From Candidatus Marinacidobacterales bacterium (GTDB lineage: Bacteria > Acidobacteriota > Vicinamibacteria > Marinacidobacterales > SMYC01), in contig CBDCYI010000011.1 in assembly GCA_965224085.1 (NCBI GenBank), positions 64,001 through 128,000 of the forward strand: 64,000 bases of DNA. Reading direction: 5' to 3'. The notes under the pieces were generated by a model that saw nothing but the letters and a program-made list of their open reading frames with translations, had not been told where the DNA came from and made no database searches. Position numbers and translations under genes: made by a program. This document shows positions 10,040-48,378 of the stretch, piece by piece; the stretch's first letter is position 1; every line of letters starts with the position of its first letter.

Positions 10040-10344
10040 GTCATCCTTTCGGAGGGCCAAGGGATGTCGTTGTGGTGGCTCTGAAATCCGTTGTCCACAT
10101 TGTATAACAAGCGTCCGAGCCGTGGCGGCATGCGAGCGCATGGCTTGGGATCAGACGTTCTCAAAGAAAACGGGACGCGTCGAGTGATCGCCTAAAGTTA
10201 TAAAAATAAGTACTTTAGTACAGGTTGGCTACAAAGCTGAGTCCGGGTGCCGTTCCGGGTCCCCAAGGTGCCGCTCCGCGTGGCTTGGCGACCGTTCTTG
10301 CCGGTAAAGCTCGCCTGGCTAGTATGGATCCATAAACTGTGCGC

Positions 10345-10806
10345 ATGCTGATCTGGGCGCAGACCAAACAAGGCGCGTGGAGTGCCACGCGCATACCCGG
10401 CGAAAACGGCCTTTCCATCGCCTCGAGCGTGTTCGTCCTGTGCTTAAAAGGCCACCATGCGTGCGGCATCTTCGTTCATGGTGACGCGGATGTCAACGGT
10501 TGTGCGGCGCTCCCGTTTCACGTTCTCGATCATCGAGACGAGATCCGCGTCGACGGTAACCTTTATTACATAAGCGCCGCGTCGGCGCCGGAGCCTTACC
10601 CCTTCGTGCCCGCCGACAAACCGATCCTCTGCGCGCGATGCGGCGACGAGCCCAAGGCGGCGGAACTTGTCGTGCGCTGTCCTCTCTGTGACGCGCTGCA
10701 TCACCACATCGAGTGTTTCGACTACGACCCCGAGTGCGGTGCGTGCAAGCGGGTGACGTCGTGGATGCCGGATTCCCTCGAGGAGAACGAGCGATGGCAT
10801 CACTGA
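10345..10806 (+). CDS. Degenerate FHA-like domain plus prokaryotic RING finger (putative E3-like protein)
   Basis: VNG...L.H.DEIRV (FHA C-terminal strands), then CARC-x12-CPLC..HHH..C-x6-CGAC; TAAACT 6 nt before the ATG. Confidence 0.65.
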   Translation: MLIWAQTKQGAWSATRIPGENGLSIASSVFVLCLKGHHACGIFVHGDADVNGCAALPFHVLDHRDEIRVDGNLYYISAASAPEPYPFVPADKPILCARCGDEPKAAELVVRCPLCDALHHHIECFDYDPECGACKRVTSWMPDSLEENERWHH

Positions 10807-11042
10807 TGGACGACCGCTACAGCCGTATCGCCGAGATGCCTTTGGTTGGGCCAGATGGGCTGGCCAAGCTCCAACGCTCTTCGGTGGCCATCGTGGGCGT
10901 CGGAAACGTGGGAGGTCAGCTCGGGCCGCATTTTTCGATGATGGGCTGCGGTCTCACGCTCGTGGACCGTGACGTCGTCGCCCGGGTAAACCTCGGAACG
11001 CAAGGCTTCTCTTCGAAGGAAGAAGGGATAGACTTCGTATGA
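10794..11042 (+). pseudogene. Truncated ThiF/E1-like adenylyltransferase (about 80 N-terminal aa)
   Basis: DRYSR..G..KLQRSSVAIVGVGNVG..LTLVDRDVV...NLGTQ, then an abrupt stop; GAGGAG RBS; overlaps the RING gene. Confidence 0.85.
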
Positions 11043-11045
11043 GCG

Positions 11046-12032
11046 ATGTCGAGTGCGGAAATTCGCCGCTCTGTGAGCCATCTGAGGCAGCTCCTTCGTT
11101 CCGGTGGCTTCGAGAAGGCGGCCGAACAAGCGGAGGAGGCGATGGCGCGATACCCGGATAGCGTCGAGCTCCTTGCCGTGTCCGCGGATATCCACCGGCG
11201 TGAGAAAAAGCTCGATGAGGCGAAAGCGCTTCTCGAGCGAGCGCGCGCCATCGAGCCCATGCACCCGGCCGTCCTCGCTTCTTCCGCAGATCTCGCCTAC
11301 GACCGCGGGCGGTTCGAAGATGCGGCCTCCCTCTACTTGGAGCTCGTTGACCGGCGCCCGAGCAGCTATCACTACTCGCGTCTCGTGGCGGCCAAGAATC
11401 GACTCGGCGCGCACGAAGAGGCGGCTGCGATTGCCCGGCGCGCGCTCGAGCGCTTCCCCGGCGATCCGTGGAACCTCCGCGGCCTCGCCACCGCCGAGAG
11501 CAAGCTCGGACGAAGGGAAGAAGCCGTCGCCGTTTACGAGGCGCTTCTATCCGTAGCGCCCGATGACCGCTTCGCTTACAAAGAGCTCATGCGCCTCAAG
11601 ACCGACGAGAGCTCTCCCGAAGAAGCGGCTTCCGCCCTAAAAGGGCTCATGCGGAGCGGTGGTCGCAGCCGAAATCCCCACCTCAGGACATTGGCCGCCG
11701 AGAGGCTACGCAAAGCGGGGAAGCTCGAAGACGCGGTCTCCGAGTACGAAGACGCTCTCGGCCTCGATCCAGGGAGCCCCTACATCCTGGCCCAGCTCGG
11801 CTTCACCCAAAAAAAACTCGGCCGCGAGCAAGACGCGATCGAAAGTCTCTCTAAAGCGTTCCTGGCAAAGCCTTCCGACCCCTACGTTCGCAAGAGCCTC
11901 GAGTCTCTCTTGAAAAAGCGCGGCGAGATCGCGCGTTTCGTCGAGCTCGTCGACGAAGCGCTGCGGCTTCATCCCTCGGTGAAGCTCCTTCACGGCATTC
12001 GCAAGCGCGTCGCCCGCCTTGCGAGCTCGTAA
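11046..12032 (+). CDS. All-TPR repeat protein
   Basis: Repeated A...YE.AL...P helical units across 328 aa; no signal peptide or catalytic motif seen. Confidence 0.9.
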   Translation: MSSAEIRRSVSHLRQLLRSGGFEKAAEQAEEAMARYPDSVELLAVSADIHRREKKLDEAKALLERARAIEPMHPAVLASSADLAYDRGRFEDAASLYLELVDRRPSSYHYSRLVAAKNRLGAHEEAAAIARRALERFPGDPWNLRGLATAESKLGRREEAVAVYEALLSVAPDDRFAYKELMRLKTDESSPEEAASALKGLMRSGGRSRNPHLRTLAAERLRKAGKLEDAVSEYEDALGLDPGSPYILAQLGFTQKKLGREQDAIESLSKAFLAKPSDPYVRKSLESLLKKRGEIARFVELVDEALRLHPSVKLLHGIRKRVARLASS

Positions 12033-12047
12033 GGTACACTCCTCGCG

Positions 12048-15000
12048 ATGGCAACAGTCCGCATCGGCGAGCTCGTGGAGCTTCCACGCGTTCGCACTGT
12101 CATCCAGCTCGTGGACGTATCGGACGAGGCACTAGCCCGGGGGATCCTCGACGACTTCGTTCTCACGGCCGATTGCGACTTCGCTCTGAGCGCGCTGCTC
12201 GACGCGATGACGCATGACGAAGGCCAGGGTTTTTTCCTGCAAGGAAATTTCGGCTCGGGCAAGTCCCATCTTCTCGCGCTCGTGGAACTCTTGTTTCGAC
12301 CCGCTGCCGAACCGGACATTAATAAAGAGGACGGGTGGGGAGCGCTCATCCGGCAAAGCCGCCGCTATGAAACGCTACGAAAGAAGCTCTCACCCCATGC
12401 CGGAGCGAGCGTGGTCGGAGCGGTCTCCCTCGTCGCGCACGCCGGCTCGGAAAGACTCGAAGACATCTCTATCGCGGCGCTCGAAAAGACGTTCGAGGGG
12501 CCACTCGGCCTCGCTCCGAGCTTCACCGCGGAGACCGCAGCAGTAGGAGAAATCAGGGCCGCTCTCGAGTCGCGACATCGGGACGCGCTCGAGAGTTTCC
12601 AGAACCGGCGCTCTGTGACCGCCGAGCGTTTGTTCGACGCCGGCCGACCCGATCTGCTCGACGATCTCGTGCGTGAGCTCGACCTTCCGTTCCGCGTCCG
12701 TCGCCAGCGAGGCGCGTTCTTCGATGCCCTCGAGGCGCAGCTCGGAAAAGGCAGCGCGCCGAAACGCGCCCTCCTCATCGTCGACGAGCTCTCGGAGTTT
12801 CTGCGCTCGAAGCCCGATGCCCGCGCGTTCAACGAGGACATCCGCTTTCTCCAGTTCCTCGGTGAAGCGAGCCGACGCATGCCCTTCTTCATCGTCGCTT
12901 CGCTCCAGGAGCACATAGAGACGACGGGCGAGATCGATCAGTCGACGTTCGGCAAGATCAAAGACCGCTTCCCTTCGCGTCTCGCTCTTACCGGAAGCCA
13001 TCTCCGCGAGATTGCAAGCACGCGTCTCATCCTGCAAAAGCCCGGTGCCGAAGCGCAGATCGCAGAGATCTATCGGAAATTCCGCATTGCTTTCAAAGGC
13101 CTCGCCGTATCCGAGGCTGATTTCACCGCACTCTACCCGGTCCACCCGGCGACGGTGGATCTTCTCGACGACTTGTTGCCGCTGTTCAGTCGGCATCGGG
13201 GGGCGGTAGACTTTCTCCACTATCAACTCGCTGGCGATCCTCAGCGACACATCGCCGGGCTATTAGACGCGCCAGCCGAGTCTCTTCTCGGGCCCGATGC
13301 GATCCTCGACCACTTCCGGATTCGCATCCAAGAGACACTCGAGACGAGCCCCTACATCACCGTAGTGCTTGCTTTCTACGAAAAGGAGCTCTCGCGTCTG
13401 TTCGCCGAGCCTGAAGATCGAGAGACGGCGCTCCGTCTCGTCAAGTTGCTCATCCTTCTCGCGATCTCTCCCATCCCCCGGCGCCGCACTGTCGCCGAGC
13501 TCGCCGAGATGCTTCTCAAGAGCATCACCACGCTCGAATCCGAAGCCAACTACGATCACGTTCACGATCTCCTTGAAAAGATGCACCTCGAGGGCGCCTA
13601 TCTATCCCGCACTGAGGGCGAGGACGGCAAAGACCCGTACGAGAATGTGTACTCCCTCGACCTCGCCGCCGACGTCCAGCTCATCATCCAGAGACGGATG
13701 GAAACCCTGCTGAAGGATCCAGGCTTCACCGTCTCTCGAGCCGTGGGGAAACTTCTCCCATATTTCAAGAGTCCCGAACTTCCGCTTGCGTCGCTGGCTA
13801 AGTCGCCGGTCACCGAGCGGCGCGTCTCGTGGCAAAAGACCTACCGCGAAGGAAACCTGCTGTTTTTCCGCGACGCAGACGACCCCCTACTCTCCGATGA
13901 GCGCCTCGATGAGCTGGTGGAGAAGCTCTGGACCACGGAGCTCGACTTCTGTGTCCTACTCATGGCTCCGGGTGGAGGGGTCGAGCCAGCGACGCTAGAC
14001 CGGTTCATCGGACGACTCGACGAGCGAGCGCCCGAGCCCTTCCTTGTCTGGGTGCCGGCGCCGCTCGAAAAAGGCAAGGAGAAGCCCGGCCAGCTCATTC
14101 GCCGGGCGGCGGCTCGGCTCGCCGTCCGGGAGCACTTTCATCAGGAAGGCTCGGACGTAGCGAAGCGTGTGCTAGCGGCCCTCGAACCTCTGATCCGGGA
14201 AGATCTCGAGCTCAGCGAGAGTGTCGTTCAAAAAACCTATCGAGGCGGGCGCTTCATGGCGCCGTCGGGGAGCCCTACGTTGACGCCGGCTGAGCTTCCA
14301 TCCATCGGCTTCGATCGCATCGTGACCCGCCTGGCAGAGTTTCCCCTCGTACGGCGTTTTCCCAACCACTACGACATCGCGCCCTCGCTCGAAGCCTCAG
14401 CGACCGACCTGCCCGCACCGATTCTCCGCGAGTTTTTCCGGGCCGGAGAGGTCGCGCGACAAAACACCTCCGAGATGCTTCGCACGACGCTCGAGTCCAG
14501 GCTGCGCGCGCTCGGACTCGTCCGCCGCACCGCGACCGGTTATCGCTTGCAACCCGACCCCTCGGAGAGCGACCTCGTGCGCCGCGTGCTTACGCGTGTC
14601 GGAGAAAAGCGCGTTGTTTTGGAAGTGCTGTACCAGGAGCTTCGAAAGGGCGCGTTCGGTCTAACGCGGCCGTCCTTCGAGCTCGTCGTGCAGGCATTGT
14701 TGTATTCGGGCCAGCTGACGGCCTACGCTTCGGGCCGAAAGCTTTCTCTCGACGCGCTCGAGACCCGCTCCGTGAGCCGCATCCAGGAGCTGGGCGCAGG
14801 CGAGATGCTCTCAGGCGAGCTGCAAGCCGTGCTGGCTGGACTTCCTTTCGTGCCGCCCCGGCTTCAACAGGGAGCGTTCGGCTTTGCGCAACAACGTGAG
14901 CTCTGGGACTGCGTTGTTCAATGGAAGTCGGAGCTCGAGCGCGGCGTCGCCGATTTGAAGGCGGAGCTCGAGCGGTCGCGTGCCTACCGCTCGGCGGCCC

Positions 15001-17423
15001 ACCTCGATCTCGACGCGCTGAACTCGCGCATCGAGCGGCTCGAATCGCTGGGCAAAGAAGTCAAAGTCTCCTACGCGGCAAGAGAAGGACTCGAGCGCTT
15101 CGCGCGCCGCGCTCGCGAAGAGCCCGACCTCACCCAGGATTTCGAAGCTTTGGTCGAGCTCTCGCGCTTTTTTCGAGAAGACTGGGAGCGCTATCTCTTC
15201 GTTCATCGCTACTTGAGTGATGCCGCGATGGAGCTTCCTGTGCAGGACGAAGAGCACAAAGAGCTCGGCGCGAGACGTCATCGCCTTCGGGAGCTTGCTT
15301 CCCGTCCCGATTTGCCCTTTCTCCCCGCGTTGACGCGACGGCTCAACGATGAAATGCAGGCTTTCGTTTCCACCTACAGCGCTGTGTACGAGAGGGCGCA
15401 CCGCACGCAAAAATCCCGCGAGCGGGTGAAGCGTCTTCTCTCGCTCCGGGACGAGAAGAGCTATCGCGTACTCCAACGGCTCGCTGCGCTCGAGCTGATC
15501 TCGGTCGACGATGATCGGGTGAAGGCGGACCGTCTTTTGGACGAAGCGCTGGCAAAAACTTGCGATAGGCTCTCTCCGGAGCTTCTGCGCGCGAAGCCCG
15601 CATGCGACTGCGGCTTTAGGCTAGGAGACGTGCTCGAGCTTCCCGCACCGTCCGAGGTTCAGACCGTCATCGATCGCGGCATCGTCCAGTACTTGGAAAG
15701 ACTACGGGAGCCGACCTATCTAGAGCCCATCGAGAGCGCACTCCACGGGCTATCGGAAGTGGGCAAAGACTCTCTTGTGTCTAAAATCCGCAAGCTCGTA
15801 GAGCTCGACCTCGAAGCGCCCGATCTTCTGAAGCGCGTCGACAAGCTCGCCGCGAGCGAGGTCATCGACGCGGTGAACGATGCGCTCGCGGGGCACGCAG
15901 TTCTCGTCGAGAGAAGCCTCGAGGATCTCGCCGAGCGCATTGCGGAAAGGAGCTTCCCCCGCAAGGCGCTCCTCGACATCGTGGCACGATGGATCGACGG
16001 TGACGCGGCGCTCGCATCGGAGGACTACATCAAAGTGGTTTCTCAAGGAAAAATCGCGGCAGAGCAAAGTGTGCTTGCGTCTTTCGTCCGCGAACGTTTC
16101 TCGGAGCTGTGGCCGTGGTGGGAGAAGCTTGGTGAGCGCAAAGCTTGCCGGCTCATGGTTCTGGCCTTTCGCGCTCCCGCTCCGGTTGAAGAGGTCGAGC
16201 CACGGATTGCGGAGCGTCTTCATGACGCCTTTGACGCGTTTACCAGCGAGGCTCCCGACGAGGTCTTGTCGGTTTTCGAGCGTGTCGAGAGCGAGCTGAC
16301 GGATGACGAGCGGCGCGCGATTCTCTCACACAATGACGGCGACGACGCGGAGACGCTCGCTCGTCTCGCTTATGGGGAAAAGTCGTTTCGCTTCGCGGTT
16401 AGGGATCGAGCGAGAAAGCTCATCCGCATGGTCCTTGCGGGCTCGCTAACGAGTGTACCGGCCGGCGCGCGTAGTTCGGATCCAGACCAAGACGTTCAGC
16501 GCGAACGGCTCGGCCTCGAGGCACTCACCCGAGCGCTCGAGTCGGGCGTGAGCCTCTACCGCGGGATACACTACGTGGACGGGCTAGAAAAATCCCCCGA
16601 CACCCCAGAGGGCTGGGAGACGCTCTACCGTGAGCACATGGCGCCGATGCCCGTGGCGCTCTGCCATCTGCAGGAATCACTCGACGAGCTCAAGCTCGCG
16701 GATGCGATTGACCTAAAAGGCCCGACCCGAAACGCACGTCGCCTTCTCGAAGCGCGGGCGTCCGACTTCGAGACTTTTTTTCTCGCTCAGGCCCCCGCCG
16801 AGGGTGCGAGAACACTCCGATACCTTTTCGAAGAGTTCGCCGAAAAATACCGAAGAAAGCTCGAGCCCGCCAGCGAGAGGTTTGTGTTCCTCGACGGCAT
16901 GCGCTGGGACGTGTGGAGTCATTTACGAGCCACGCTCCTGCCTCGACTCCGGGCCGTGTACCGCGTCGTCGACGAAATTCCGCTCTGGTCCATCCATCCC
17001 ACGACGACCCAAGCTCAGCTCGAGGCCGCCGGGATCGGCGTTCCCCAGCTCGAGCTCGTCGCGGAGTCCCAACCGAGCTACGGCCAAAAGGCGGAGACTT
17101 CGGTACTGCCCGGTTTCAAGCGTCTCCATGGACCGGGCGGTGAGCCGATCGAGCGACTGAATCTCGTGGACGACAAGATCCACGAGTCGTCGATGCCCCT
17201 CTCCGATGTACTCCGCGAGATCGAGCTTCACGCGCGAAGGACGCTCGGGACTTTGCTGGAAGAAGCGCCGCGGCGAACGCTCGTGTTTCTTTTCTCCGAT
17301 CACGGCTTTCGCGAAGATCCCCGCTGGAGCGAAACCTCCCGGCATCGAAAGCCTCGTTACCGGCACGGCGGCGCGAGCCTGTGGGAGGTCATCACCCCGC
17401 TCGTGATCCTGTCTCGAAGCTGA
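12048..17423 (+). CDS. DUF6079/BrxC(PglY)-like P-loop ATPase fused to a C-terminal PglZ-like alkaline-phosphatase-superfamily domain
   Basis: Walker A GNFGSGKSH (12243), Walker B LLIVDE (12777), FLQFLGE, KDRF, YPVHP, Cys cluster (15561-15611); C-terminal FLDGMRWD (16893), PTTT, DDKIH, SDHGF (17295), HGGASLWE (17364). Confidence 0.85.
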   Translation: MATVRIGELVELPRVRTVIQLVDVSDEALARGILDDFVLTADCDFALSALLDAMTHDEGQGFFLQGNFGSGKSHLLALVELLFRPAAEPDINKEDGWGALIRQSRRYETLRKKLSPHAGASVVGAVSLVAHAGSERLEDISIAALEKTFEGPLGLAPSFTAETAAVGEIRAALESRHRDALESFQNRRSVTAERLFDAGRPDLLDDLVRELDLPFRVRRQRGAFFDALEAQLGKGSAPKRALLIVDELSEFLRSKPDARAFNEDIRFLQFLGEASRRMPFFIVASLQEHIETTGEIDQSTFGKIKDRFPSRLALTGSHLREIASTRLILQKPGAEAQIAEIYRKFRIAFKGLAVSEADFTALYPVHPATVDLLDDLLPLFSRHRGAVDFLHYQLAGDPQRHIAGLLDAPAESLLGPDAILDHFRIRIQETLETSPYITVVLAFYEKELSRLFAEPEDRETALRLVKLLILLAISPIPRRRTVAELAEMLLKSITTLESEANYDHVHDLLEKMHLEGAYLSRTEGEDGKDPYENVYSLDLAADVQLIIQRRMETLLKDPGFTVSRAVGKLLPYFKSPELPLASLAKSPVTERRVSWQKTYREGNLLFFRDADDPLLSDERLDELVEKLWTTELDFCVLLMAPGGGVEPATLDRFIGRLDERAPEPFLVWVPAPLEKGKEKPGQLIRRAAARLAVREHFHQEGSDVAKRVLAALEPLIREDLELSESVVQKTYRGGRFMAPSGSPTLTPAELPSIGFDRIVTRLAEFPLVRRFPNHYDIAPSLEASATDLPAPILREFFRAGEVARQNTSEMLRTTLESRLRALGLVRRTATGYRLQPDPSESDLVRRVLTRVGEKRVVLEVLYQELRKGAFGLTRPSFELVVQALLYSGQLTAYASGRKLSLDALETRSVSRIQELGAGEMLSGELQAVLAGLPFVPPRLQQGAFGFAQQRELWDCVVQWKSELERGVADLKAELERSRAYRSAAHLDLDALNSRIERLESLGKEVKVSYAAREGLERFARRAREEPDLTQDFEALVELSRFFREDWERYLFVHRYLSDAAMELPVQDEEHKELGARRHRLRELASRPDLPFLPALTRRLNDEMQAFVSTYSAVYERAHRTQKSRERVKRLLSLRDEKSYRVLQRLAALELISVDDDRVKADRLLDEALAKTCDRLSPELLRAKPACDCGFRLGDVLELPAPSEVQTVIDRGIVQYLERLREPTYLEPIESALHGLSEVGKDSLVSKIRKLVELDLEAPDLLKRVDKLAASEVIDAVNDALAGHAVLVERSLEDLAERIAERSFPRKALLDIVARWIDGDAALASEDYIKVVSQGKIAAEQSVLASFVRERFSELWPWWEKLGERKACRLMVLAFRAPAPVEEVEPRIAERLHDAFDAFTSEAPDEVLSVFERVESELTDDERRAILSHNDGDDAETLARLAYGEKSFRFAVRDRARKLIRMVLAGSLTSVPAGARSSDPDQDVQRERLGLEALTRALESGVSLYRGIHYVDGLEKSPDTPEGWETLYREHMAPMPVALCHLQESLDELKLADAIDLKGPTRNARRLLEARASDFETFFLAQAPAEGARTLRYLFEEFAEKYRRKLEPASERFVFLDGMRWDVWSHLRATLLPRLRAVYRVVDEIPLWSIHPTTTQAQLEAAGIGVPQLELVAESQPSYGQKAETSVLPGFKRLHGPGGEPIERLNLVDDKIHESSMPLSDVLREIELHARRTLGTLLEEAPRRTLVFLFSDHGFREDPRWSETSRHRKPRYRHGGASLWEVITPLVILSRS

Positions 17424-17464
17424 TCGCGGGCGCCAACGCATCATCGAAGTCCACCGCTCACGGT

Positions 17465-17664
17465 CCCGGACGAAGATCCAACTCGGCCGGGTCTTGCTCC
17501 CGGCGAAGGAGCGAGTCTCGTCGGCCTGGAGCTCCTCGGCAATAAATCCTGCGATCCTTGCCTGGTTGAAGCGCCGGCACGCGTCGGCGGCCATCTCGAC
17601 CCAGCGGGCCACGGTGTTCCAGGCAATACCTTCGATACGACCGATCGCCGACACGAAGCACCAG
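17465..17664 (-). mobile_element. IS1-like transposase remnant
   Basis: VSAIGRIEGIAWNTVARW (HTH), then EELQADETRSFAGSKTRPSWIFV (first DDE aspartate region); truncated at both ends. Confidence 0.6.
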
Positions 17665-19185
17665 TTACTGTGCATCGAAAACGCCGGGTGGCGCTTGTGT
17701 TTCTCTAGGGGGCGGGTACGCCAAATGTTTTTCCATCTGAAACCAGGGAACCATCCACGGTTCTTCACGCCATGTGCTATCCAACAGGGCAACGTATTGG
17801 TCAACCAATCCGCGAACCCGTGCGTCATGGCTGATCATGTCGTGGACAGGATCGAGTGGACCGACAATTTTCGCATAGACCTGGCCCGCGGAATCTACAT
17901 GATTGAAAACAGCGAATACGGTTGCGCCCGTCGAAAAGGCTAGCTCAGCGAAACTCGTCCGGAACGGTCGCCAGCGACCGTGAAAATCGTATCGGATGCC
18001 GGAGCTTCGGCCATGATGGCCGTCACCGGCGATGGTGACGACACCCCCTCGTTGAAGCGTCCGTCTTGCGGTGTTCAGCTGATGAGAGAAAAGCGAGTTT
18101 TCTAGAGTGCTGCTGGAAAGCTCGAGCCGCTTTAGGTAGATGTGGACGCCACCTACGTTGTAGCTGCCGAGCTGCAAAAGGCTGGACCAAGATTGAGCAT
18201 TGTCGTGACAGCACACCAGGACCACGCCGCGTTCTTGATCGAGGAATCGTTGCAGCTGCTCCTTACCCTCGATCGAGAAGCGATTCGCATACTCCTGCCG
18301 CCGGGCCTCATCCCTTGGCACTCGGCCCCACGGTCCGATCCTATAGTGGAAGAGGCTACCGAACAACAAACAGTCGTGCATCAATCGATTCTCGTCCGCA
18401 TCGATGTCGAGCACACCGAGAAAGCGGCGGATCAGTCGAATGTAGTATCGAAACAACGCGTCTTGCATCGACGGGTATTCGAGGGCAGTGCTCAGGAGTC
18501 GGTACGCCACGGGATAGGGCAGGGCATTCGCCACCGCACTCGCCCACCTCCGACGCCCATGCCACCCCTGTGAGATCGTCGCCTTGGGATCCGCACCAAG
18601 ACGTGGCTGCTCGATACGCTCGTAGAGCGCGTCCAGCGCTTCCGTCTTTTCCGGCTGAACGGCGAAATCAGGATGGACTCGGGTACCCGTACCGTCGGCG
18701 TCGTGCGCATGATCTCCCTTGGACGACCGATCGGGGCTGAGCATGGCGGCCAGTTCCGCCACGCTCGGATTGCGAAAGAACGACTTGAGCGGGATATCCA
18801 CCCCGAACTTTCGTTCCAGTTGCGCGGCGAGGCGTAGGGTCAGCAAGGAATGTCCGCCCAACTCGAAGAAATTATCGTGCACCCCGACTTGCTCCACGTC
18901 CAGTATGTCGGCCCAGATAGCTGCCACTTCTGCCTCGACCTCTGTGCGTGGACCCACGTAGGCGTGCTCGAGATCGGGCCGGGTTGGCTCGGGGGCGGGC
19001 AATTTTCGCCGGTCGACCTTGCCGGTGGGCGTTAGCGCCAGGTGATCCAACTGCACGAAGACGATTGGGATCATATAGTCGGGCAGTTTCTGGCGGAGGA
19101 AACGGCCCAGGTCGCGGCTATCGATCTTGCGGTTCACCACCACGTAGGCCACCAACCGCCTGTCCTGTGGCGTATCTTCTCGAGC
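17665..19185 (-). pseudogene. 5'-truncated NRPS: A-domain C-terminus, PCP, and a lipid A/lysophospholipid acyltransferase-like terminal domain
   Basis: RLVAYVV, LPDYMIP, LTPTGKVDRRKLP, DNFFELGGHSLL (Ppant serine); then GVVLVCCH, GGVVTIAGDG, F.G, LAFSTGA.V, EEPW..W. Confidence 0.85.
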
Positions 19186-19251
19186 GGTACTTTCGAGTGA
19201 ACGAACGATTTCGGTCACTCCCCGATGACCTCCGCCCACGCGGGCGGTGCC

Positions 19252-20057
19252 ATTGCTGTCAAATTGAGCTGGTGACTGACAGAATGGTCCAATGAAGACC
19301 GATGCGCCAAGCTACCACGGCTATCGATTTCCACCGGAAATCATCAGCCACGCCGTCTGGCTCTACCACCGATTCTGCGTGAGCTTTCGAAACGTCGAAG
19401 AGCTGCTTGCTCAGCGAGGCATCACGGTTTCCTACGAAGCGATCCGACTTTGGTGCATCAAGTTCGGGCCGGAATACGCTCGGCGACTGAAGCGTCGGCA
19501 GGGTCGCCTTGGTGACACGTGGCACCTGGACGAGGTCTTCATAAAGATACAAGGCGAACGCCAATACCTCTGGCGCGCGGTAGACCAAGATGGTGATGTG
19601 ATTGATATCCTCGTCCAGCCTCGCCGTGATCAGAAAGCCGCCAAACGATTCTTCCGCAAGCTGTTGAAAGGGCAAGGCCGTCCGCCCTGGCAGCTGGTCA
19701 CCGACAAACTGAGAAGCTACAGTGCCGCTCACCGCGAGGTCATGCCGTCCGTCGTCCACGACACTGACCAGTACAGAAACAACCTAGCCGAAGTCTCGCA
19801 CGAACCGACGCGACAACGGGAACGACAGATGCGGAAGTCTAAAGCTCCTGGGCAGGCGCAACGATTCTTGACCGTGCATGGACTCGTGCAAAACCTCTTT
19901 CGCGTCGGACGGCATTTGTTGCAAGCGCATCATCATCGGGAGCTACGAGACCGCGCTTTCATCGTCTGGCAGGAGGTAACCTGTGCCGTCCGATGAGAGC
20001 AAAGGAAGTCAGCTCGACGCAATAGGTTCGCTCGCTCAACGTCAACTTGACAATACC
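19252..20057 (+). mobile_element. IS6-family insertion sequence
   Basis: Transposase bounded by imperfect IRs (..TGTCAAATTGA at 19257; TCAACTTGACAATACC ending at 20057). Confidence 0.85.
19292..19996 (+). CDS. IS6-family DDE transposase
   Basis: YRFPPEII..AVWLY.RF..S.R.VEELLA.RG, WHLDEVF, YLWRAVD, VTDKLRSY, NN.AE.SH. Confidence 0.95.
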   Translation: MKTDAPSYHGYRFPPEIISHAVWLYHRFCVSFRNVEELLAQRGITVSYEAIRLWCIKFGPEYARRLKRRQGRLGDTWHLDEVFIKIQGERQYLWRAVDQDGDVIDILVQPRRDQKAAKRFFRKLLKGQGRPPWQLVTDKLRSYSAAHREVMPSVVHDTDQYRNNLAEVSHEPTRQRERQMRKSKAPGQAQRFLTVHGLVQNLFRVGRHLLQAHHHRELRDRAFIVWQEVTCAVR

Positions 20058-35330: not shown

Positions 35331-38246
35331 TCAGTCAAGCTTTCGCTCGACTTCGCGGATGCGCTCGCGATCCATCTCGCCGTCTTTCCAAAATTCGAAG
35401 AAGCGTTCGTAGGCGTCCAGAGCGTCTTCTTCGTAGCCCCTTTCCTCGCGAAGCTTGCCGAGGAAATAAAAACTCCGAACGTAGCGAGTCGGCTCGAAGA
35501 TACGTTCTTCGGTCGAGTTGACGATGCGCTCGTACCACATCGTCGCTTCTCCGATATTGCCGGCCTCGCGATGAGCGTTGGCGATCGCATACCAGATGAC
35601 GGTGTGGAGACCTTCGACGCCGCGCGGAGGCAACATCGATTCCGCTTCGTTCAAATGGGCGATCGCCGACGCGAAGTCACCGAGCGCGAGCGCGAGCTCG
35701 CCTTCGAGAAGTTGGCGCATGCGTTCGCGTCCGGGCCCAAACGTTGGTTTCACCCGTTCGCGGAAGGCTTCCGCGAGCTCGCGCGCCCGCGTCTCGTCAC
35801 CCAGACGTGCCGAGGCGACGGCGGCGATGAAACGACTCTGTGGGCCCGAGTCGTACCGGTCGTCTGGCCCTTCGATCGTGAGCGCAGCCTCTCGCGCGCC
35901 TTCGTTGTCGCCGACGTCGAGCAGAACCCTCGCTTTGTACAACGTAGGCTGGTTTTTGAAACGTCCTTCTCCGGCCGCGATCAACGCGTCAATACCGTTG
36001 ATCACGGGCGTATAGCACCCTTTGTAGAGCTCGGTGATCGCGACGAGACGGCCACCGTAGAACTTCTCAATCATCTCTTCCGCCTCGAGCATGCTGGCAG
36101 CGATCTTTGCGGCGTCGTCCCACTCTTCTTCGAGAATATGCGCTTCCCAGAGGACGGGAGCCGTGCGGAATTTGCTCGCGCCCAACTCTTCGGCGCGCTC
36201 GAGCTCATTGAGACCACGTTCGATCTCGCCGCTCTCGATCGATAGCTGAGCTATCGAGACCAGTGTCATCCAGTCATCTGGGTTGCGTTCGTTGAACTCC
36301 TCGAGAACCGCTCGGGCGCGGGCATCATCGCCGCGCGCCTGGTAGGCCCTCGCGAGGTTCTCGTAGGTGGCGGGAAAGACCATGCCGCGGCTTTCGAGCT
36401 CTTCGAACTGCTCGATGGCCGCGTCGTAATCTTCGAGGTCGACGAGCAAGTTTCCGAGGTTGTGTCGTGCCGATCCGTGGTCGGGATAGAGCTTAATCGC
36501 CATGCGATAGGCTTCAAGCGCTCGATCGAGAGTTTCGGGATTTCGGGAGTAGTGCCAACCTTCGATGTAGTGTCGCTCCCTAGCGGAGAGCCGCTCGATA
36601 TGCTGGAGGGCGGCTACCGCAAATTCATCGGCTTCTTCCTGCCGGCCGAGGTTGTTATGGACGACGCCCAACTTCGCGAGGGCCATCGCGAATCCCGGGT
36701 CGAGCTCCACTGCGCGCCTGAAGTGCGGCAGAGCCTCCTCTTCGCGATAGCGTTCGTGTAGACGGATGCCTTCGGCGTAATGTCGATAGGCTTCGACGGA
36801 AGCGGTCGTCACGTCGCGCAGGTCACGGTCGAGCTCGCCTTCGAGCGCGACGACGGAGAAGTTGGCTTTGATGCGGCCGCTAATCTCGTCGACTAGATGA
36901 AAGACGCTCTCCTCACCCGTCCCTTCGGCCTTCTCCGAGAGCAAGACCCTGCCAGTATGCGCGTCTTCGAGGCGCGCCGAGATGCGGATCGAATCGCCTG
37001 CTTTCGCGAAGCTTCCACGAAGAACAGTATTCACGGAAGCGCGCCGCGCGAGCTCTTCGATGGCCTCCGAAGGCGTGGGTCCGCCGTGAATGCGGCCCAT
37101 CTCGTCGAGAATCTGATAGAGGCGGTCGGTGCCAAGAACCTCGAGCTCGGGCGATTGCGAGAGATCCGTCACCAGCATGTCGGTGAGTCCCATCCGCAGC
37201 CACTCGAGCTCTGGATCGCCGGACAGATTCTCGAAATGCAACACTGCGAGCGATGGCGTCTCGCTCGTTGGCGTAGGGTCGGGTGGCGTCAGGAGTAAGG
37301 CCATGATGGCGGCTACCGCAAAGACGCTTATTCCCGCCGCAACGGCGAGGCGTTTCAAGCGCGTCGCCTTCCCGCCGGAAGCGAGGCGCAGTCGCGCGAG
37401 CTTCAAATCCGCGAGCACCTCAGACATGTGCTGGTAGCGTTTGTCCGGCTCTTTTTCGAGACATCGGTCGATGATTGGTTGGAGAACCTGCCGCTCTTCC
37501 CCGTTCAAGCCCGGGATCTTCGGAGTCGGGTCGCGCAGGATGGCGTAGAGCGTGTCGATGCGGCTTTTGCCTTCGAACGGTGGCTGTCCGCCCAGCACGT
37601 GGAAGAGCAACAAGCCGAAGCTGAAGATGTCGCTTCGCGGGTCGACTTTCCCCCCGCGCGCCTGCTCAGGCGACATGTACGACACCGTCCCTTCGATGAC
37701 GCTCTCGCCCGTGACGCTCTTCTGGGCCGATTCGTCGGGGCGTGTCTCGCTGAGAAACGGATTTTTGTCCGCGTCGACGAGCCTCGCTAAACCGAAATCG
37801 ATCAGCTTCGGGTGGCCTTCGCTCGTCAGCATGACGTTCGCGGGTTTGACGTCACGATGCACGATGCCATGTGCATGCGCGTAGGTGAGCCCATGAGCGA
37901 CGCCACTTGCGAGCTCCAATCCTTCGCGCGGCGGGAGCCGCTCCGGCGATTTCAAGCGATCGGCTAGGCTTTTCCCGCGGAGAAGCTCCATGGCGATGAA
38001 GATAACGTCATCCGATTCGTCGATCTCGTGGATGACAGCGATGTGAGGGTGCTCGAGCGCCGCGGCTGCGGTGGCCTCCTGCACGAAGCGTTGGCGTCGG
38101 TCACTCTCCTTCACGAGTTCCGGCGGCAGGACTTTTAGCGCGACCTCGCGGAGAAGCTTTTCGTCGCGGGCGCGGTAGACGGTCTGGAGCTCGCCTCGAG
38201 TGATCTCCTCGAGGACCGTGTAATGTGAGAGCTTCTTGCCAATCAT
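35331..38246 (-). CDS. Hanks-type Ser/Thr kinase, TM, TolB-N-like domain and TPR repeats
   Basis: VALK, HRDVKPAN, DFGLA, GTVSYMSPEQ, SDIFS; SLAVLHFENLSGD; TPRs. Confidence 0.93.
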   Translation of the reverse strand: MIGKKLSHYTVLEEITRGELQTVYRARDEKLLREVALKVLPPELVKESDRRQRFVQEATAAAALEHPHIAVIHEIDESDDVIFIAMELLRGKSLADRLKSPERLPPREGLELASGVAHGLTYAHAHGIVHRDVKPANVMLTSEGHPKLIDFGLARLVDADKNPFLSETRPDESAQKSVTGESVIEGTVSYMSPEQARGGKVDPRSDIFSFGLLLFHVLGGQPPFEGKSRIDTLYAILRDPTPKIPGLNGEERQVLQPIIDRCLEKEPDKRYQHMSEVLADLKLARLRLASGGKATRLKRLAVAAGISVFAVAAIMALLLTPPDPTPTSETPSLAVLHFENLSGDPELEWLRMGLTDMLVTDLSQSPELEVLGTDRLYQILDEMGRIHGGPTPSEAIEELARRASVNTVLRGSFAKAGDSIRISARLEDAHTGRVLLSEKAEGTGEESVFHLVDEISGRIKANFSVVALEGELDRDLRDVTTASVEAYRHYAEGIRLHERYREEEALPHFRRAVELDPGFAMALAKLGVVHNNLGRQEEADEFAVAALQHIERLSARERHYIEGWHYSRNPETLDRALEAYRMAIKLYPDHGSARHNLGNLLVDLEDYDAAIEQFEELESRGMVFPATYENLARAYQARGDDARARAVLEEFNERNPDDWMTLVSIAQLSIESGEIERGLNELERAEELGASKFRTAPVLWEAHILEEEWDDAAKIAASMLEAEEMIEKFYGGRLVAITELYKGCYTPVINGIDALIAAGEGRFKNQPTLYKARVLLDVGDNEGAREAALTIEGPDDRYDSGPQSRFIAAVASARLGDETRARELAEAFRERVKPTFGPGRERMRQLLEGELALALGDFASAIAHLNEAESMLPPRGVEGLHTVIWYAIANAHREAGNIGEATMWYERIVNSTEERIFEPTRYVRSFYFLGKLREERGYEEDALDAYERFFEFWKDGEMDRERIREVERKLD

Positions 38247-46194: not shown

Positions 46195-48378
46195 ATGCAG
46201 AAACTCAGGAGTTGGTCTAGTGAATATTCACATATATTGCTGATCAGCATTTTTATTCTTTTTACTGAACTGTTTCTGATCCGCTGGATCTCAACTGAAA
46301 TAAGAATTTTTGCCTACGTTAACAATCTCGTACTATTGGCCTGTTTTGTGGGACTGGGATTGGGTTCCTTGTTGGACAAAAGGTTTGGAAACCTGCTTTG
46401 TTCGGTTATCTCCATTTTTCTGCTGGCTCTGGCAAGCACGTCAAACCACTTTCTCAACATAACAGAACAGATCGGTAGCTTTTCGGATCAGCTGATTTGG
46501 TACCTGGACGATCAACCCATCAATTGGATCCAGCCTGTGCGTGGAATACTTTCAACATTGCTGCTTTTTGCATTTATCGTTGCTGTGTTCATACCTCCGG
46601 GGCAGATTCTGGCCCGACTCCTTTCAAGTGCAAAAAATATTACACTCGGATATTCAGTCAATATCTTTGGAAGTATTGTGGGTATCTGGCTGTTTTCAAC
46701 GATTTCCTTTTTGTTCCTGCCACCGGCAGTCTGGCTGGCACTTTCCCTGATATTGTCCTGGAAGTTTATCCAACCCATCAAGTGGGAACGGACTGTGTTT
46801 TTCTGCTCCTCTTTGATTACTGTTTTTTTATTGCTGCCCCATACTTCTTCACTTCAGATCTGGTCTCCTTATCAAAAGCTGGATATGCAGCCCGCACAGA
46901 TCAGAAATACAAATATTACTAACGGATATATTATTAATGTTAACAATGTCGGATACCAGAAACTGATTGATTTATCGGATCGATTTTTTGAAAAGTATGC
47001 AACTCCAGAAATCAATTCTGTAAAACATCTTAACCAGTATGAGCTTCCTTATCTGATCAAAGGGGACGTAAAAGATGCCTTGATTGTGGGAGCAGGTGCC
47101 GGCAATGGTCCTGCAGGTGCCATTCGTCAGGGAGTGGAAAGAATTGACGCAGTGGAGATTGACCCCGGCATATACGAACTGGGAACCCGCTATCACCCGG
47201 AAAGTCCCTACGATAGTGAACGAGTTAGAGTTCACATCGACGATGCAAGATCCTTTTTCAAGAAAAGCAGGCAAAAGTATGACGTGGTAAGTTTTGGACT
47301 TCTCGATGCACATTCCACCGCTTCCAGTTTTAACAACATCCGACTTGATCATTATGTCTACACGGAGGAAAGCATTCAGGATGCAAGAAAACTGCTGAAA
47401 CCCGACGGGATCTTAACCTTGATTTTTGCCCCTCATGGGAGGGGGTGGCTGATCGGCCGGCTTCATAACATCATCGAGAAGGTTTTTGGGCACTCTCCCC
47501 TGGTGTTTGAGGTCCCAACGGTTCCCTATTCGGGTTGGGGCGGGAGCATGTTTGTTGTAAGCAATGATGGCACAGACCCCAGGCTCCTGATTGAAAAAAG
47601 GCCTGACGTTAAGAGTTACATCTCACCTAAAATCTTCTCTGCTAAGCAAGAAAGTGACATAAGAAACGCTACTGATGACTGGCCTTATTTGTATCTGGTG
47701 AAAAACAGAATTCCTAAAATGCACCTATTGATCACTTTTTGCCTTCTGATCTTACTGGTGCCAACCAGGAAAATTCTCACAATCACCAAAAAATCCTTTG
47801 ATTTTCATTTTTTCTTTTTGGGAGCAGGGTTCTTGCTTTTGGAGTTCCAGAACATAAGCAAAGCCTCATTGTTTTTTGGTTCCACTTGGCTGGTGAATGC
47901 CTATATGTTTAGTGCCATCTTAGGTTTAATTTTGCTTGCCAATTGGGCCAGTTATTTGGGATTGAGCAAACATATTGGAATAGTTTACTGCCTTCAGTGG
48001 ATTTGTATACTCGCGCTCTTTCTGCTTCCTCTCGATACTTTTAGAGGTATGGGGCACCTTTTTAATGCGACCGTGCTTTCAACCCTGTTAAATATACCCG
48101 TTTTTTTTGCGGGGCTTATATTTATGCACTCTTTTGTCAGAGTGAAGGATAAGCCGCTCGCGCTAGGTTCCAATCTTCTGGGAGCTTGTGTTGGTGGATT
48201 GCTTGAATCGGCTTCTTTTGTGGTGGGAATCAAGGCTCTGTTGCTATTTGTACTGGCCTTTTATGTTCTCGCTTATTTCAGTTTTAATAGATCAGGACTT
48301 GCCCGGGCCCCGGTGCGTCAAGCCTCAATTTTCCTGTCAAATCTCTGCATGGTTCCCCGAACTCGGTTAGGCTGCTGA
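46195..48378 (+). CDS. Polytopic membrane protein with a central spermidine-synthase-like SAM-binding domain; low GC
   Basis: N- and C-terminal TM bundles; WSPYQK, LIVGAGAGN, AVEID, DDARSF, KYDVV, ATDDWPYLY. Confidence 0.82.
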   Translation: MQKLRSWSSEYSHILLISIFILFTELFLIRWISTEIRIFAYVNNLVLLACFVGLGLGSLLDKRFGNLLCSVISIFLLALASTSNHFLNITEQIGSFSDQLIWYLDDQPINWIQPVRGILSTLLLFAFIVAVFIPPGQILARLLSSAKNITLGYSVNIFGSIVGIWLFSTISFLFLPPAVWLALSLILSWKFIQPIKWERTVFFCSSLITVFLLLPHTSSLQIWSPYQKLDMQPAQIRNTNITNGYIINVNNVGYQKLIDLSDRFFEKYATPEINSVKHLNQYELPYLIKGDVKDALIVGAGAGNGPAGAIRQGVERIDAVEIDPGIYELGTRYHPESPYDSERVRVHIDDARSFFKKSRQKYDVVSFGLLDAHSTASSFNNIRLDHYVYTEESIQDARKLLKPDGILTLIFAPHGRGWLIGRLHNIIEKVFGHSPLVFEVPTVPYSGWGGSMFVVSNDGTDPRLLIEKRPDVKSYISPKIFSAKQESDIRNATDDWPYLYLVKNRIPKMHLLITFCLLILLVPTRKILTITKKSFDFHFFFLGAGFLLLEFQNISKASLFFGSTWLVNAYMFSAILGLILLANWASYLGLSKHIGIVYCLQWICILALFLLPLDTFRGMGHLFNATVLSTLLNIPVFFAGLIFMHSFVRVKDKPLALGSNLLGACVGGLLESASFVVGIKALLLFVLAFYVLAYFSFNRSGLARAPVRQASIFLSNLCMVPRTRLGC

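Follow-up and report, generated by a model that had tools for sequence, protein, structure and literature searches.

A BrxC-type ATPase and a PorX/PglZ-type phosphoesterase domain joined in one polypeptide and encoded beside a tetratricopeptide repeat protein

INTRODUCTION

BrxC and PglZ are the two proteins common to all types of bacteriophage exclusion (BREX) system, and we know of no settled account of how BREX stops phage replication. Passages of PMC13326643 describe BrxC as binding DNA and self-associating under the control of ATP, and as forming a core complex with BrxB:PglZ. The BrxC:BrxB:PglZ complex has been solved (PDB 9zll, 9zn5), and by the same passages it is BrxB and the AAA+ domain that make the link, whereas the BrxC C-terminus does not. 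PglZ itself is reported to be a metal-dependent nuclease (PMC12205998), and the PglZ domain of PorX is reported in parts of PMC12839542 to cleave cyclic and linear oligonucleotides. Here we analyse a stretch of 64,000 nt from a Candidatus Marinacidobacterales bacterium (contig CBDCYI010000011.1, positions 64,001 to 128,000; the whole stretch is called the window below), in which a single forward-strand gene at 12048-17423 joins relatives of both proteins. A first reading of this gene from its letters alone, referred to here as the sequence-only reading, had proposed a fusion of a DUF6079-type ATPase, a Cys cluster and a compact PglZ domain. We find this molecular architecture well supported, and we see an even chance that the fusion gene and the tetratricopeptide repeat (TPR) protein gene just upstream (11046-12032) form a two-gene module that is related to the BREX core and works without a methyltransferase.

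RESULTS

A BrxC-type head and a PorX/PglZ-type end in one reading frame

By computation, the protein starts with a BrxC-type AAA+ head, in which the Walker A and B motifs are intact and an arginine finger is probable, and continues into a long helical body whose Cys triad is universally conserved. Covalently attached to this body is a trimmed PglZ/PorX-type metal-dependent phosphoesterase with a complete active site. Translation of the gene meets zero internal stops over 1,791 aa, and every motif listed in the sequence-only reading was located in the translation, from residue 66 to residue 1773. The gene and its features up to the Cys triad are as follows, with invariance referring to an alignment of 25 sequences:

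12048..17423, forward strand: fusion gene, one open reading frame (ORF) with an ATG start, 1,791 codons plus stop
12048..13667, forward strand: residues 1-540, BrxC-type (ORC/Cdc6-clade) AAA+ ATPase module, lid and first helical/winged helix-turn-helix (wHTH) part
12243..12269, forward strand: residues 66-74, Walker A motif GNFGSGKSH, placed in the translation
12771..12788, forward strand: residues 242-247, Walker B motif LLIVDE, D246 and E247 invariant
12960..12971, forward strand: residues 305-308, KDRF, D306 and R307 invariant
Residue 363: YPVHP, placed in the translation
13668..15557, forward strand: residues 541-1170, mixed helical, beta and wHTH-like modules, then long helices, from the secondary structure of the model
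15561..15611, forward strand: Cys triad C1172-x13-C1186-x-C1188, candidate metal site, invariant
Residue 1172: Cys cluster motif CDRLSPELLRAKPACDCGF, placed in the translation

Sequence and structure comparisons agree with the sequence-only reading that the N-terminus is a DUF6079-type ATPase. Pfam PF19557 (DUF6079) matched with 139.2 bits (cut-off 23, E 1.4e-40) in three stretches, the best at residues 237-392. In PADLOC, BrxC models matched the fusion protein (best E 8.2e-31), and a profile search of the PDB with the N-terminus matched BrxC at E 6.5e-12. An AlphaFold2 model of residues 1-1193, based on 25 homologues (predicted local distance difference test (pLDDT) 84.5, predicted template modelling score (pTM) 0.46), retrieved Acinetobacter BrxC first in Foldseek (9zdx_C, E 5.9e-11), followed by ORC/Cdc6 proteins. 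When the model was superposed with VIA-align, the solved BrxC chain 9zll_D reached Z 22.1 (root-mean-square deviation (rmsd) 6.6 over 458 residues, model 4-538 on 1-551), and the next best structures, again ORC/Cdc6 proteins, Z 12-14.

The ATPase motifs are widely kept, with the pattern G..GSGKS present in 50 of 53 full-length relatives. HMMER alignments set E247 on the Q of Walker-B mutant BrxC chains (the E269Q structures, DE against DQ) and KDRF opposite the 'GRF' of Acinetobacter BrxC, with R307 on its arginine. R307 is probably the arginine finger, which we would equate with the published R330, the chain numbering being offset. The NCBIfam equivalog for BrxC (NF033441, BREX_BrxC) scored 90.1 bits, below its cut-off of 400. 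The Pfam wHTH/helical models of BrxC, PF25791 and PF25792, had no match in the fusion protein at E ≤ 1; both match the canonical BrxC of a genus-mate (G003), with which BLASTP aligned the fusion at 28% identity over 170 residues only. The head therefore belongs to a distant BrxC clade.

Chains of BrxC in the PDB resolve only about 550 residues, and residues 541-1170 have no solved counterpart. The order of modules past residue 540 (wHTH-like, α+β, long helices) fits the domain order of BrxC as given in passages of PMC12839542. In the model, long helices at 946-1170 end in the Cys triad, which comes with two short strands; no solved BrxC tail is available for comparison. The pattern C-x13/14-C-x-C recurs in all 53 full-length frames (50 distinct records). 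Parts of PMC12839542 describe a small subdomain at the coiled-coil tip of BrxC that its authors liken to a Zn-hook or hinge. Because the triad likewise sits at the end of long helices, a metal-mediated dimerisation point at this position is a reasonable hypothesis by analogy.

The C-terminal third follows the triad through a helical connector, and its catalytic residues, listed here, show no variation among relatives (46 of 46, drawn from about nine phyla):

15612..16508, forward strand: residues 1189-1487, helical connector, its later part aligned with the helical region of BREX PglZ
16509..17420, forward strand: residues 1488-1791, PorX/PglZ-type unit, a helical bundle and a compact alkaline-phosphatase-fold core
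16893..16895, forward strand: D1616 of DGMR, metal ligand, aligned with 'LIDNFRQD' of PorX
17007..17009, forward strand: T1654, third T of PTTT (motif at residue 1651), predicted nucleophile
17169..17183, forward strand: DDKIH with metal ligands D1708 and H1712, aligned with 'VDMMSH' of PorX
17298..17303, forward strand: D1751 and H1752 of SDHG (motif at residue 1750), metal ligands
17364..17366, forward strand: H1773 of HGG, metal ligand, aligned with 'FQHGG' of PorX

The fold of this end is of the alkaline-phosphatase/NPP type, with PorX and BREX PglZ as the best matches. A model of residues 1174-1791 (pLDDT 83.3, pTM 0.65) gave PorX (E 1.8e-7) and BREX PglZ (9zn5_B, E 8.8e-6; 9nv3_C) as the best Foldseek matches. 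In VIA-align, PorX 8p6f_A reached Z 21.6 (rmsd 3.1 over 257 residues, model 315-618 on chain 118-517), Acinetobacter PglZ 9zn5_B Z 15.3 (model 248-618 on chain 292-750) and Salmonella PglZ 9nv3_C Z 13.9 (model 161-618 on chain 183-740); NPP and autotaxin enzymes scored about Z 9, over the last 185 residues only. A profile built from 46 C-termini matched PorX at E 3.4e-14, Salmonella PglZ at 1.5e-7 and Acinetobacter PglZ at 1.4e-5. T1654 aligns with T272 of PorX, which is T in the wild type and A in the T272A mutant chain. Given this invariant Thr and the invariance of all metal ligands, the PglZ/PorX-type enzyme looks active.

Both Pfam families had been expected in the protein; DUF6079 was found where it was predicted, but the PglZ family PF08665 had no match at E ≤ 1. 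In distant fused relatives, PF08665 scored 16.1 and 13.8 bits, under its cut-off of 25. Searched against 1.84 billion representative sequences, the C-terminal profile found 2,492 proteins at E ≤ 1e-3 and 116 at E ≤ 1e-30. Among 14 of the profile matches that are 573-953 aa long and carry the match internally, PF08665 was found at E ≤ 0.001 in ten and at or above the 25-bit cut-off in eight.

The sequence-only reading had placed PglZ in the last ~180 aa and called it stripped-down. The motif positions, 1616-1773, do put all ligands of the alkaline-phosphatase type in order inside the final 176 residues, but the unit homologous to PorX and PglZ spans about 300 residues and up to about 450 align with BREX PglZ. 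The description as stripped-down is right: only 257 residues align, against the ~400-residue span of PorX, and the protein stops 18 residues past HGG. So short a tail cannot accommodate the Ig-like domain that ends BREX PglZ, which is absent; the PglZ alignments end at chain positions 740-750 of 866-879. At the other side they start at chain position 183 (9nv3_C) or 292 (9zn5_B), leaving the BrxB-binding N-terminus of PglZ unaligned, a region that was not folded or searched alone. In all relatives the PglZ-like domain is the extreme C-terminus, with tails of 0-31 residues.

Shorter proteins with this type of end also exist. Ten proteins of 472-640 aa (P0144, P0145, P0148, P0153, P0155, P0159, P0161, P0162, P0165 and P0166) have a C-terminal PglZ-like profile match, near the end in nine, at E ~1e-28 to 1e-30, and no Pfam family; they may represent pieces of fusions, or else a shorter family without a name. 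In two related loci (L043, 9791-10774; L070, 9320-10291), frames of 324-328 codons stand alone and encode the PglZ-like end only. The one in L043 directly follows a RecQ gene and has neither a TPR nor a BrxC part.

The fused frame in public reads and related genomes

Contigs from public sequencing runs reproduced the fused frame. One contig of run X1 (record 2) spans 10994-17500 and one of run X3 (record 13) spans 11868-16913, both with 0 differences to the window, and one of run X4 (record 18) spans 10994-16913 with two substitutions. Across the four public runs compared with the fusion region, whose contigs come from three studies, there were 0 insertions and 0 deletions, although one of these runs may be the sample from which the window was assembled. 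At least 70% of sampled words of 10900-17500 were present in nine runs, again from three studies; none of the 22 runs listed was an RNA run with this sequence. These contigs, together with the translation, bear out the uninterrupted frame that had been claimed.

A scan with one genome per species yielded 70 related loci. Of these, 47 hold a single frame of 1,600 codons or more, 13 break off at a contig end, six are multi-frame and four are short single frames. The loci belong to Acidobacteriota, Thermodesulfobacteriota and 'Deltaproteobacteria', Actinomycetota, Bacillota, Dormibacterota, Spirochaetota, Wallbacteria, Cloacimonadota and Calditrichota. Searching with residues 1300-1791 returned 25 proteins of 1,563-1,833 aa, all 25 of which contain DUF6079. 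Homologues are accordingly fused, not split, and the fusion is the normal state of the family. The two outcomes named in advance as refuting the sequence-only reading, a C-terminus that lacks the alkaline-phosphatase fold and homologues divided over two genes, were both looked for, and neither was seen.

Among 41 related genomes, the full-length protein occurs in five, the source genome included, at 60-100% identity, so that the independent genomes with a full-length orthologue number four (60-92%); some match was found in eight, a tally that includes a weak BrxC-like match in G027, which is marked as an unpublished genome and enters no other result here. Two short gene calls (857-878 aa, 88-89% identity), both on contigs of more than 300 kb, are probably broken copies. 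In G001 and G003 the module lies on the same side of NfeD; in two genus-mates (G002 and G004) NfeD is present and the module is absent within the 17-19 kb examined.

The broken and shortened relatives, namely the six multi-frame loci, the four short single frames and the two short gene calls, are what could be cited for regarding the fusion as a product of misassembly, as a pseudogene in decay or as two genes joined by a private deletion. We give this explanation practically no credence. Frames are uninterrupted in 47 of the 70 loci over about nine phyla, the catalytic and ATPase residues are invariant, and the frame is free of indels in contigs of runs from three studies. On the frame counts and the run contigs, a split-gene or artefact reading is for practical purposes refuted.

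A TPR protein is the constant partner

Two further features concern the partner protein:

11046..12032, forward strand: gene for an all-TPR protein of 328 aa with no signal peptide (Pfam TPR_19, E 8.4e-29)
13407..13568, forward strand: residues 454-507 of the fusion, predicted docking surface for the TPR partner, from complex prediction

The TPR stop codon lies 15 nt ahead of the fusion ATG. Neither this gene nor the lack of a methyltransferase figures in the sequence-only reading. We searched with a hidden Markov model of the TPR protein in the 51 loci with 1,100 nt or more of upstream DNA. A homologue was directly adjacent to the fusion in 36 of them; in 11 others it was encoded upstream in the same orientation, at a distance of up to ~3.5 kb, giving 47 of 51 (45 of 49 without two duplicate records). 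In the 11 non-adjacent cases, what intervenes or overlaps is RecQ (six loci), a small reverse-strand ORF (two mutually duplicate records) or our own over-long start call (three loci). No TPR homologue was found upstream in L021, L022, L033 and L040.

We then predicted the complex of the TPR protein with fusion residues 1-575, using a separate alignment for each, three runs and three controls. The scores were 0.68, 0.68 and 0.66, and the best control reached 0.01; contacts agreed at 100% between runs, and the pLDDT of the partner was at least 88. The mark used for such scores was reached by 58 of 80 solved complexes and by two of 110 mismatched pairs, counts that hold only roughly here because custom alignments were used. 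Predicted contacts involve residues 454, 457, 493-497, 500-501, 503-504 and 506-507 of the fusion and residues 182, 185-186, 197-198, 200-201 and 203-207 of the TPR protein. N501 of the fusion is invariant in 47 of 47 sequences. The model supports binding of the TPR protein to residues 454-507. A TPR-PglZ fusion that could serve as a Rosetta stone elsewhere was also sought, and none of the 24 representative profile matches scanned contained a TPR.

Neighbouring genes and the absence of other BREX components

When all ORFs of at least 90 aa were clustered across the related loci, only three neighbours recurred, none of them BrxA, BrxB, BrxL or BrxH: the TPR protein (39 loci), RecQ (seven) and a SWIM-SNF2 protein (five). 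RecQ (DEAD, Helicase_C, RecQ_Zn_bind, RQC and HRDC) lies between the TPR gene and the fusion in six loci; in the seventh, L043, it is beside the C-terminal piece. The SWIM+SNF2 helicase adjoins the fusion in four loci.

Other BREX genes were looked for in the source genome, which is 95.3% complete, and around the related loci. The genome has 0 matches to PF08665, and for PglX (NF033452) only two, of 23 and 18 bits against a cut-off of 500. Among 176 ORFs of at least 280 aa within 7 kb of the fusion in 52 loci, a DNA methylase occurred once (PF01555, beside an integrase in L022), and PglX-like proteins or 3′-phosphoadenosine 5′-phosphosulfate (PAPS) reductases, such as BrxP of type 4 BREX, not at all. 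No methylase was found among the 22 window ORFs scanned, and neither BrxA nor BrxB matched any window ORF scanned; the small ORFs of the other loci were clustered, not scanned with Pfam. The neighbours of the module in the window are FloA/NfeD, an acyl-carrier/acyltransferase gene and an insertion sequence (IS) transposase. With these neighbours, no PF08665 match and PglX matches below the cut-off, we rejected a canonical BREX operon as the identity of the locus. Since no methyltransferase or other BREX gene is present, the locus is a relative of BREX and not a BREX system.

The following observations concern the surroundings of the module. Directly upstream of the TPR gene, 10713-11042 (forward strand) encodes a 109-aa ThiF/E1-like fragment (PF00899 positions 1-65 of 238, E 2.7e-11), preceded by an ORF at 10339-10806 (forward strand) with a weak match to a prokaryotic RING finger (E 0.0096). 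The equivalent place in G003 holds another ThiF piece and ~4 kb of unannotated ORFs. The ThiF fragment and the RING-like ORF may be a decayed ubiquitin-like conjugation module. Contigs of runs X3, X4 and X9 match the window up to 11023 and then continue with 158 letters of other sequence, so the samples vary just left of the TPR gene; the divergence fits the longer NfeD-TPR spacer of G001 and G003.

Downstream, a DDE transposase of the IS240/IS6 type (19292-19996, forward strand, PF13610 E 2.6e-36) lies 1.9 kb from the fusion. Between them, 17665-19239 (PP-binding and lipid A acyltransferase-like) had no match in five relatives. Further away in the window, 46195-48378 (forward strand) has a GC content of 0.43, compared with ~0.61 in the rest of the window, and holds a 727-aa ORF with a spermine/spermidine synthase-like domain; this stretch may have been horizontally acquired. 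The gene at 35331-38246 (reverse strand) encodes a fusion of a Ser/Thr protein kinase with a long TPR array, 971 aa in all.

In other genomes, single loci show PolX (thumb plus PHP) and MutS2/Smr beside the module (L013), or UvrD-like and RecC-like genes (L030). A separate locus of G003 (L087, G003:C1:8094000-8113900) encodes a canonical 1,194-aa BrxC with BrxB adjoining, together with a C5 methylase, Vsr, a PLD-HerA protein, an IS91 transposase and a resolvase. Within the 20 kb examined, PglZ and PglX were both missing, and L087 therefore has the look of a BREX system that was disrupted, situated in a mobile or defence region.

DISCUSSION

A possible mode of action and competing explanations

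We take the TPR and fusion genes to be a BREX-related variant that does without a methylase, and so a naturally minimal relative of BREX. By analogy with BREX biochemistry, ATP binding would drive the head to self-associate and to bind DNA, as in BrxC. The fusion would stand in for BrxB, the adaptor that links PglZ to BrxC in BREX, so that the ATPase would carry its own PglZ nuclease/phosphodiesterase to the DNA it holds, and PglZ would nick or cut there. Seated, as predicted, on the helical/wHTH module that follows the AAA+ domain, the TPR protein could act as a regulator or sensor of the ATPase, and in some lineages the RecQ or SNF2/SWIM helicase of the same locus might assist. The role would most likely be a methylation-independent action against foreign or aberrant DNA. 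The patchy presence of the module (five of 41 related genomes) fits an accessory system.

Several observations weigh against a defensive module of this kind. In the absence of a methylase it has no evident means of telling self from non-self, and its PglZ part is nearer to PorX, which cleaves oligonucleotides, than to BREX PglZ. PADLOC found no defence system among 17 window neighbours, only generic matches (a PLP enzyme and an HtrA protease), and neighbours elsewhere are mostly housekeeping genes (tRNA synthetases, MreB, glutamate synthase, complex I). A FastTree tree of 51 full-length proteins groups them by phylum, with 11 label changes where the minimum is nine; shuffled labels required 26.3 changes on average, and none of 200 shuffles came as low as 11. 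Actinomycetota form one clade and Acidobacteriota stand in two places in this quick tree, which has several long branches. Between the source genome (G000) and G003, the fusion is 90.8% identical, compared with 91.7% for the TPR protein, 86.9% for NfeD and 94.9% for FloA. As the fusion diverges as slowly as its neighbours, there is no sign of arms-race diversification. The sequences would thus paint the picture of an old accessory module that is often lost, unlike a fast-moving, fast-evolving gene of a defence island. Finally, the predicted TPR interface is not extra conserved (0.55 versus 0.50 over residues 1-575 on the fusion side, 0.43 versus 0.45 on the TPR side).

Much of this suits a serious alternative, which we nevertheless hold to be rather doubtful: that the module is a cellular DNA-maintenance machine and not a defence system. 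The ATPase would load on stalled forks, ends or R-loops, PglZ would process phosphodiester or phosphomonoester ends, RecQ or SNF2 would cooperate in some lineages and the TPR protein would be an assembly factor. A phylogeny that mostly tracks phyla, divergence like that of housekeeping neighbours, ordinary chromosomal contexts free of a defence-island signal and the lack of an accompanying methylase would all be expected of such a machine, and RecQ with RQC and HRDC sits inside the operon in six loci. Repair genes also lie nearby in L013 and L030, but with one locus each these neighbours are anecdotal. Patchiness among close relatives, down to absence beside the same flanking gene in two genus-mates, would be unusual for core repair, and both domains are otherwise known from defence systems or, in the case of PorX, from signalling.

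The likeness to PorX leads to a weaker proposal, which we judge improbable, that the protein is a nucleotide-signal enzyme whose PorX-like domain degrades cyclic or linear oligonucleotides under the control of the ATPase and the TPR protein, DNA not being its substrate. Both the structural and the profile scores of the C-terminal unit are higher for PorX than for BREX PglZ, and it is cyclic and linear oligonucleotides that the PglZ domain of PorX cleaves, by the account in PMC12839542 cited above. The higher PorX scores may, however, only mirror a trimming of the fold that the two have in common. The 70 loci share no conserved receiver domain, cyclase or other signalling gene, the first 1,200 residues form an ORC/Cdc6-clade ATPase of the DNA-binding type with wHTH-like modules, and the helicase partners point to DNA.

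Going beyond the two-gene, BREX-core-related module that we favour, the pair of TPR protein and BrxC::PglZ fusion could be an ancient, mostly vertically inherited, methylation-independent DNA-surveillance machine, which gave rise to BREX once a methyltransferase and adaptors joined it; the Cys triad would then be a Zn-hook-like dimerisation point at the tips of the helical arms and the TPR protein the switch of the ATPase. This is speculation, and we think it unlikely. If true, it would make the pair the simplest natural system in which to see BrxC and PglZ act on DNA.

In the BREX-related module, the core of BREX is available as one chain that has a single small partner and lacks a modification enzyme. 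Being a single polypeptide with an intact active site, found in about nine phyla, the fusion is tractable for biochemistry and cryo-electron microscopy of ATP-gated DNA binding, activation of the PglZ nuclease and the role of the TPR protein. The predicted docking site at 454-507 and the universal Cys triad are concrete targets for mutation. The family also raises the question whether the BrxC-PglZ machinery has roles beyond epigenetic self/non-self defence.

Comparison with known systems

In the titles, abstracts and passages of the DUF6079, PglZ and BrxC literature that we consulted, we found no description of a BrxC-PglZ fusion, and none appears in the PglZ passages of PMC3632139. The terms 'TPR', 'RecQ', 'tetratricopeptide' and 'BrxC-PglZ' are absent from the main text of the most complete BREX diversity survey (PMC12839542), whose supplementary tables may list such proteins. 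The sequence-only reading had taken the fusion as a Rosetta stone for direct BrxC-PglZ coupling. The fusion is real and family-wide, but the inference adds little because the BrxC:BrxB:PglZ complex is already published and, in the passages of PMC13326643 on it, the link is made via BrxB.

The best structural and profile match of residues 1488-1791 is PorX, a response regulator of type IX secretion (PDB 7pv7, 8p6f, 8ted). The two share a helical bundle with a compact PglZ domain, the aligned Thr nucleophile (T272 in PorX) and aligned metal ligands. PorX, of ~520 aa, carries a CheY-like receiver at its N-terminus, whereas the fusion has a 1,480-residue BrxC-like ATPase in that place and no Pfam match to Response_reg anywhere in the protein. 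Its core is also the shorter one, as the aligned residues show.

Two other arrangements described in passages of PMC12839542 come close. A HerA/FtsK-centred, BREX-related 'capture' system likewise brings together a reduced PglZ and a DUF6079/BrxC-like ATPase in a setting other than canonical BREX. There, however, they are separate genes among seven components (with a STAND NTPase, DUF4007, HerA/FtsK, GNAT and TGT) in 45 taxa, the PglZ keeps an N-terminal inactive helicase domain, and the passages mention no TPR partner. The PglZ of type 4 BREX, with its N-terminal fusion to a BrxB-like iSTAND module, is a precedent for joining PglZ to a regulating P-loop protein. In that case the fused partner is a small inactive BrxB-like module, BrxC is a separate gene, and a PAPS reductase serves phosphorothioation.

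The closest counterpart is the BREX core BrxC:BrxB:PglZ itself, represented by type 1 systems of Acinetobacter, Escherichia fergusonii and Salmonella (PDB 9zdx, 9zll, 9zn5, 9nv3). It draws on the same two families with the same PglZ catalytic residues, and in both cases the two proteins act as one physical unit. The joint differs: in the fusion it is at the C-terminus of the BrxC part, whereas in BREX, by the published passages, PglZ residues 1-98 (Acinetobacter numbering) bind BrxB and BrxB binds the AAA+ domain. Of the domains of BREX PglZ, the Ig-like one at the C-terminus is missing from the fusion, and the alignments described above showed nothing that corresponds to the N-terminal part that binds BrxB. 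No BrxB, BrxA, BrxL or PglX gene accompanies the fusion, and the TPR protein takes their place as its sole constant partner.

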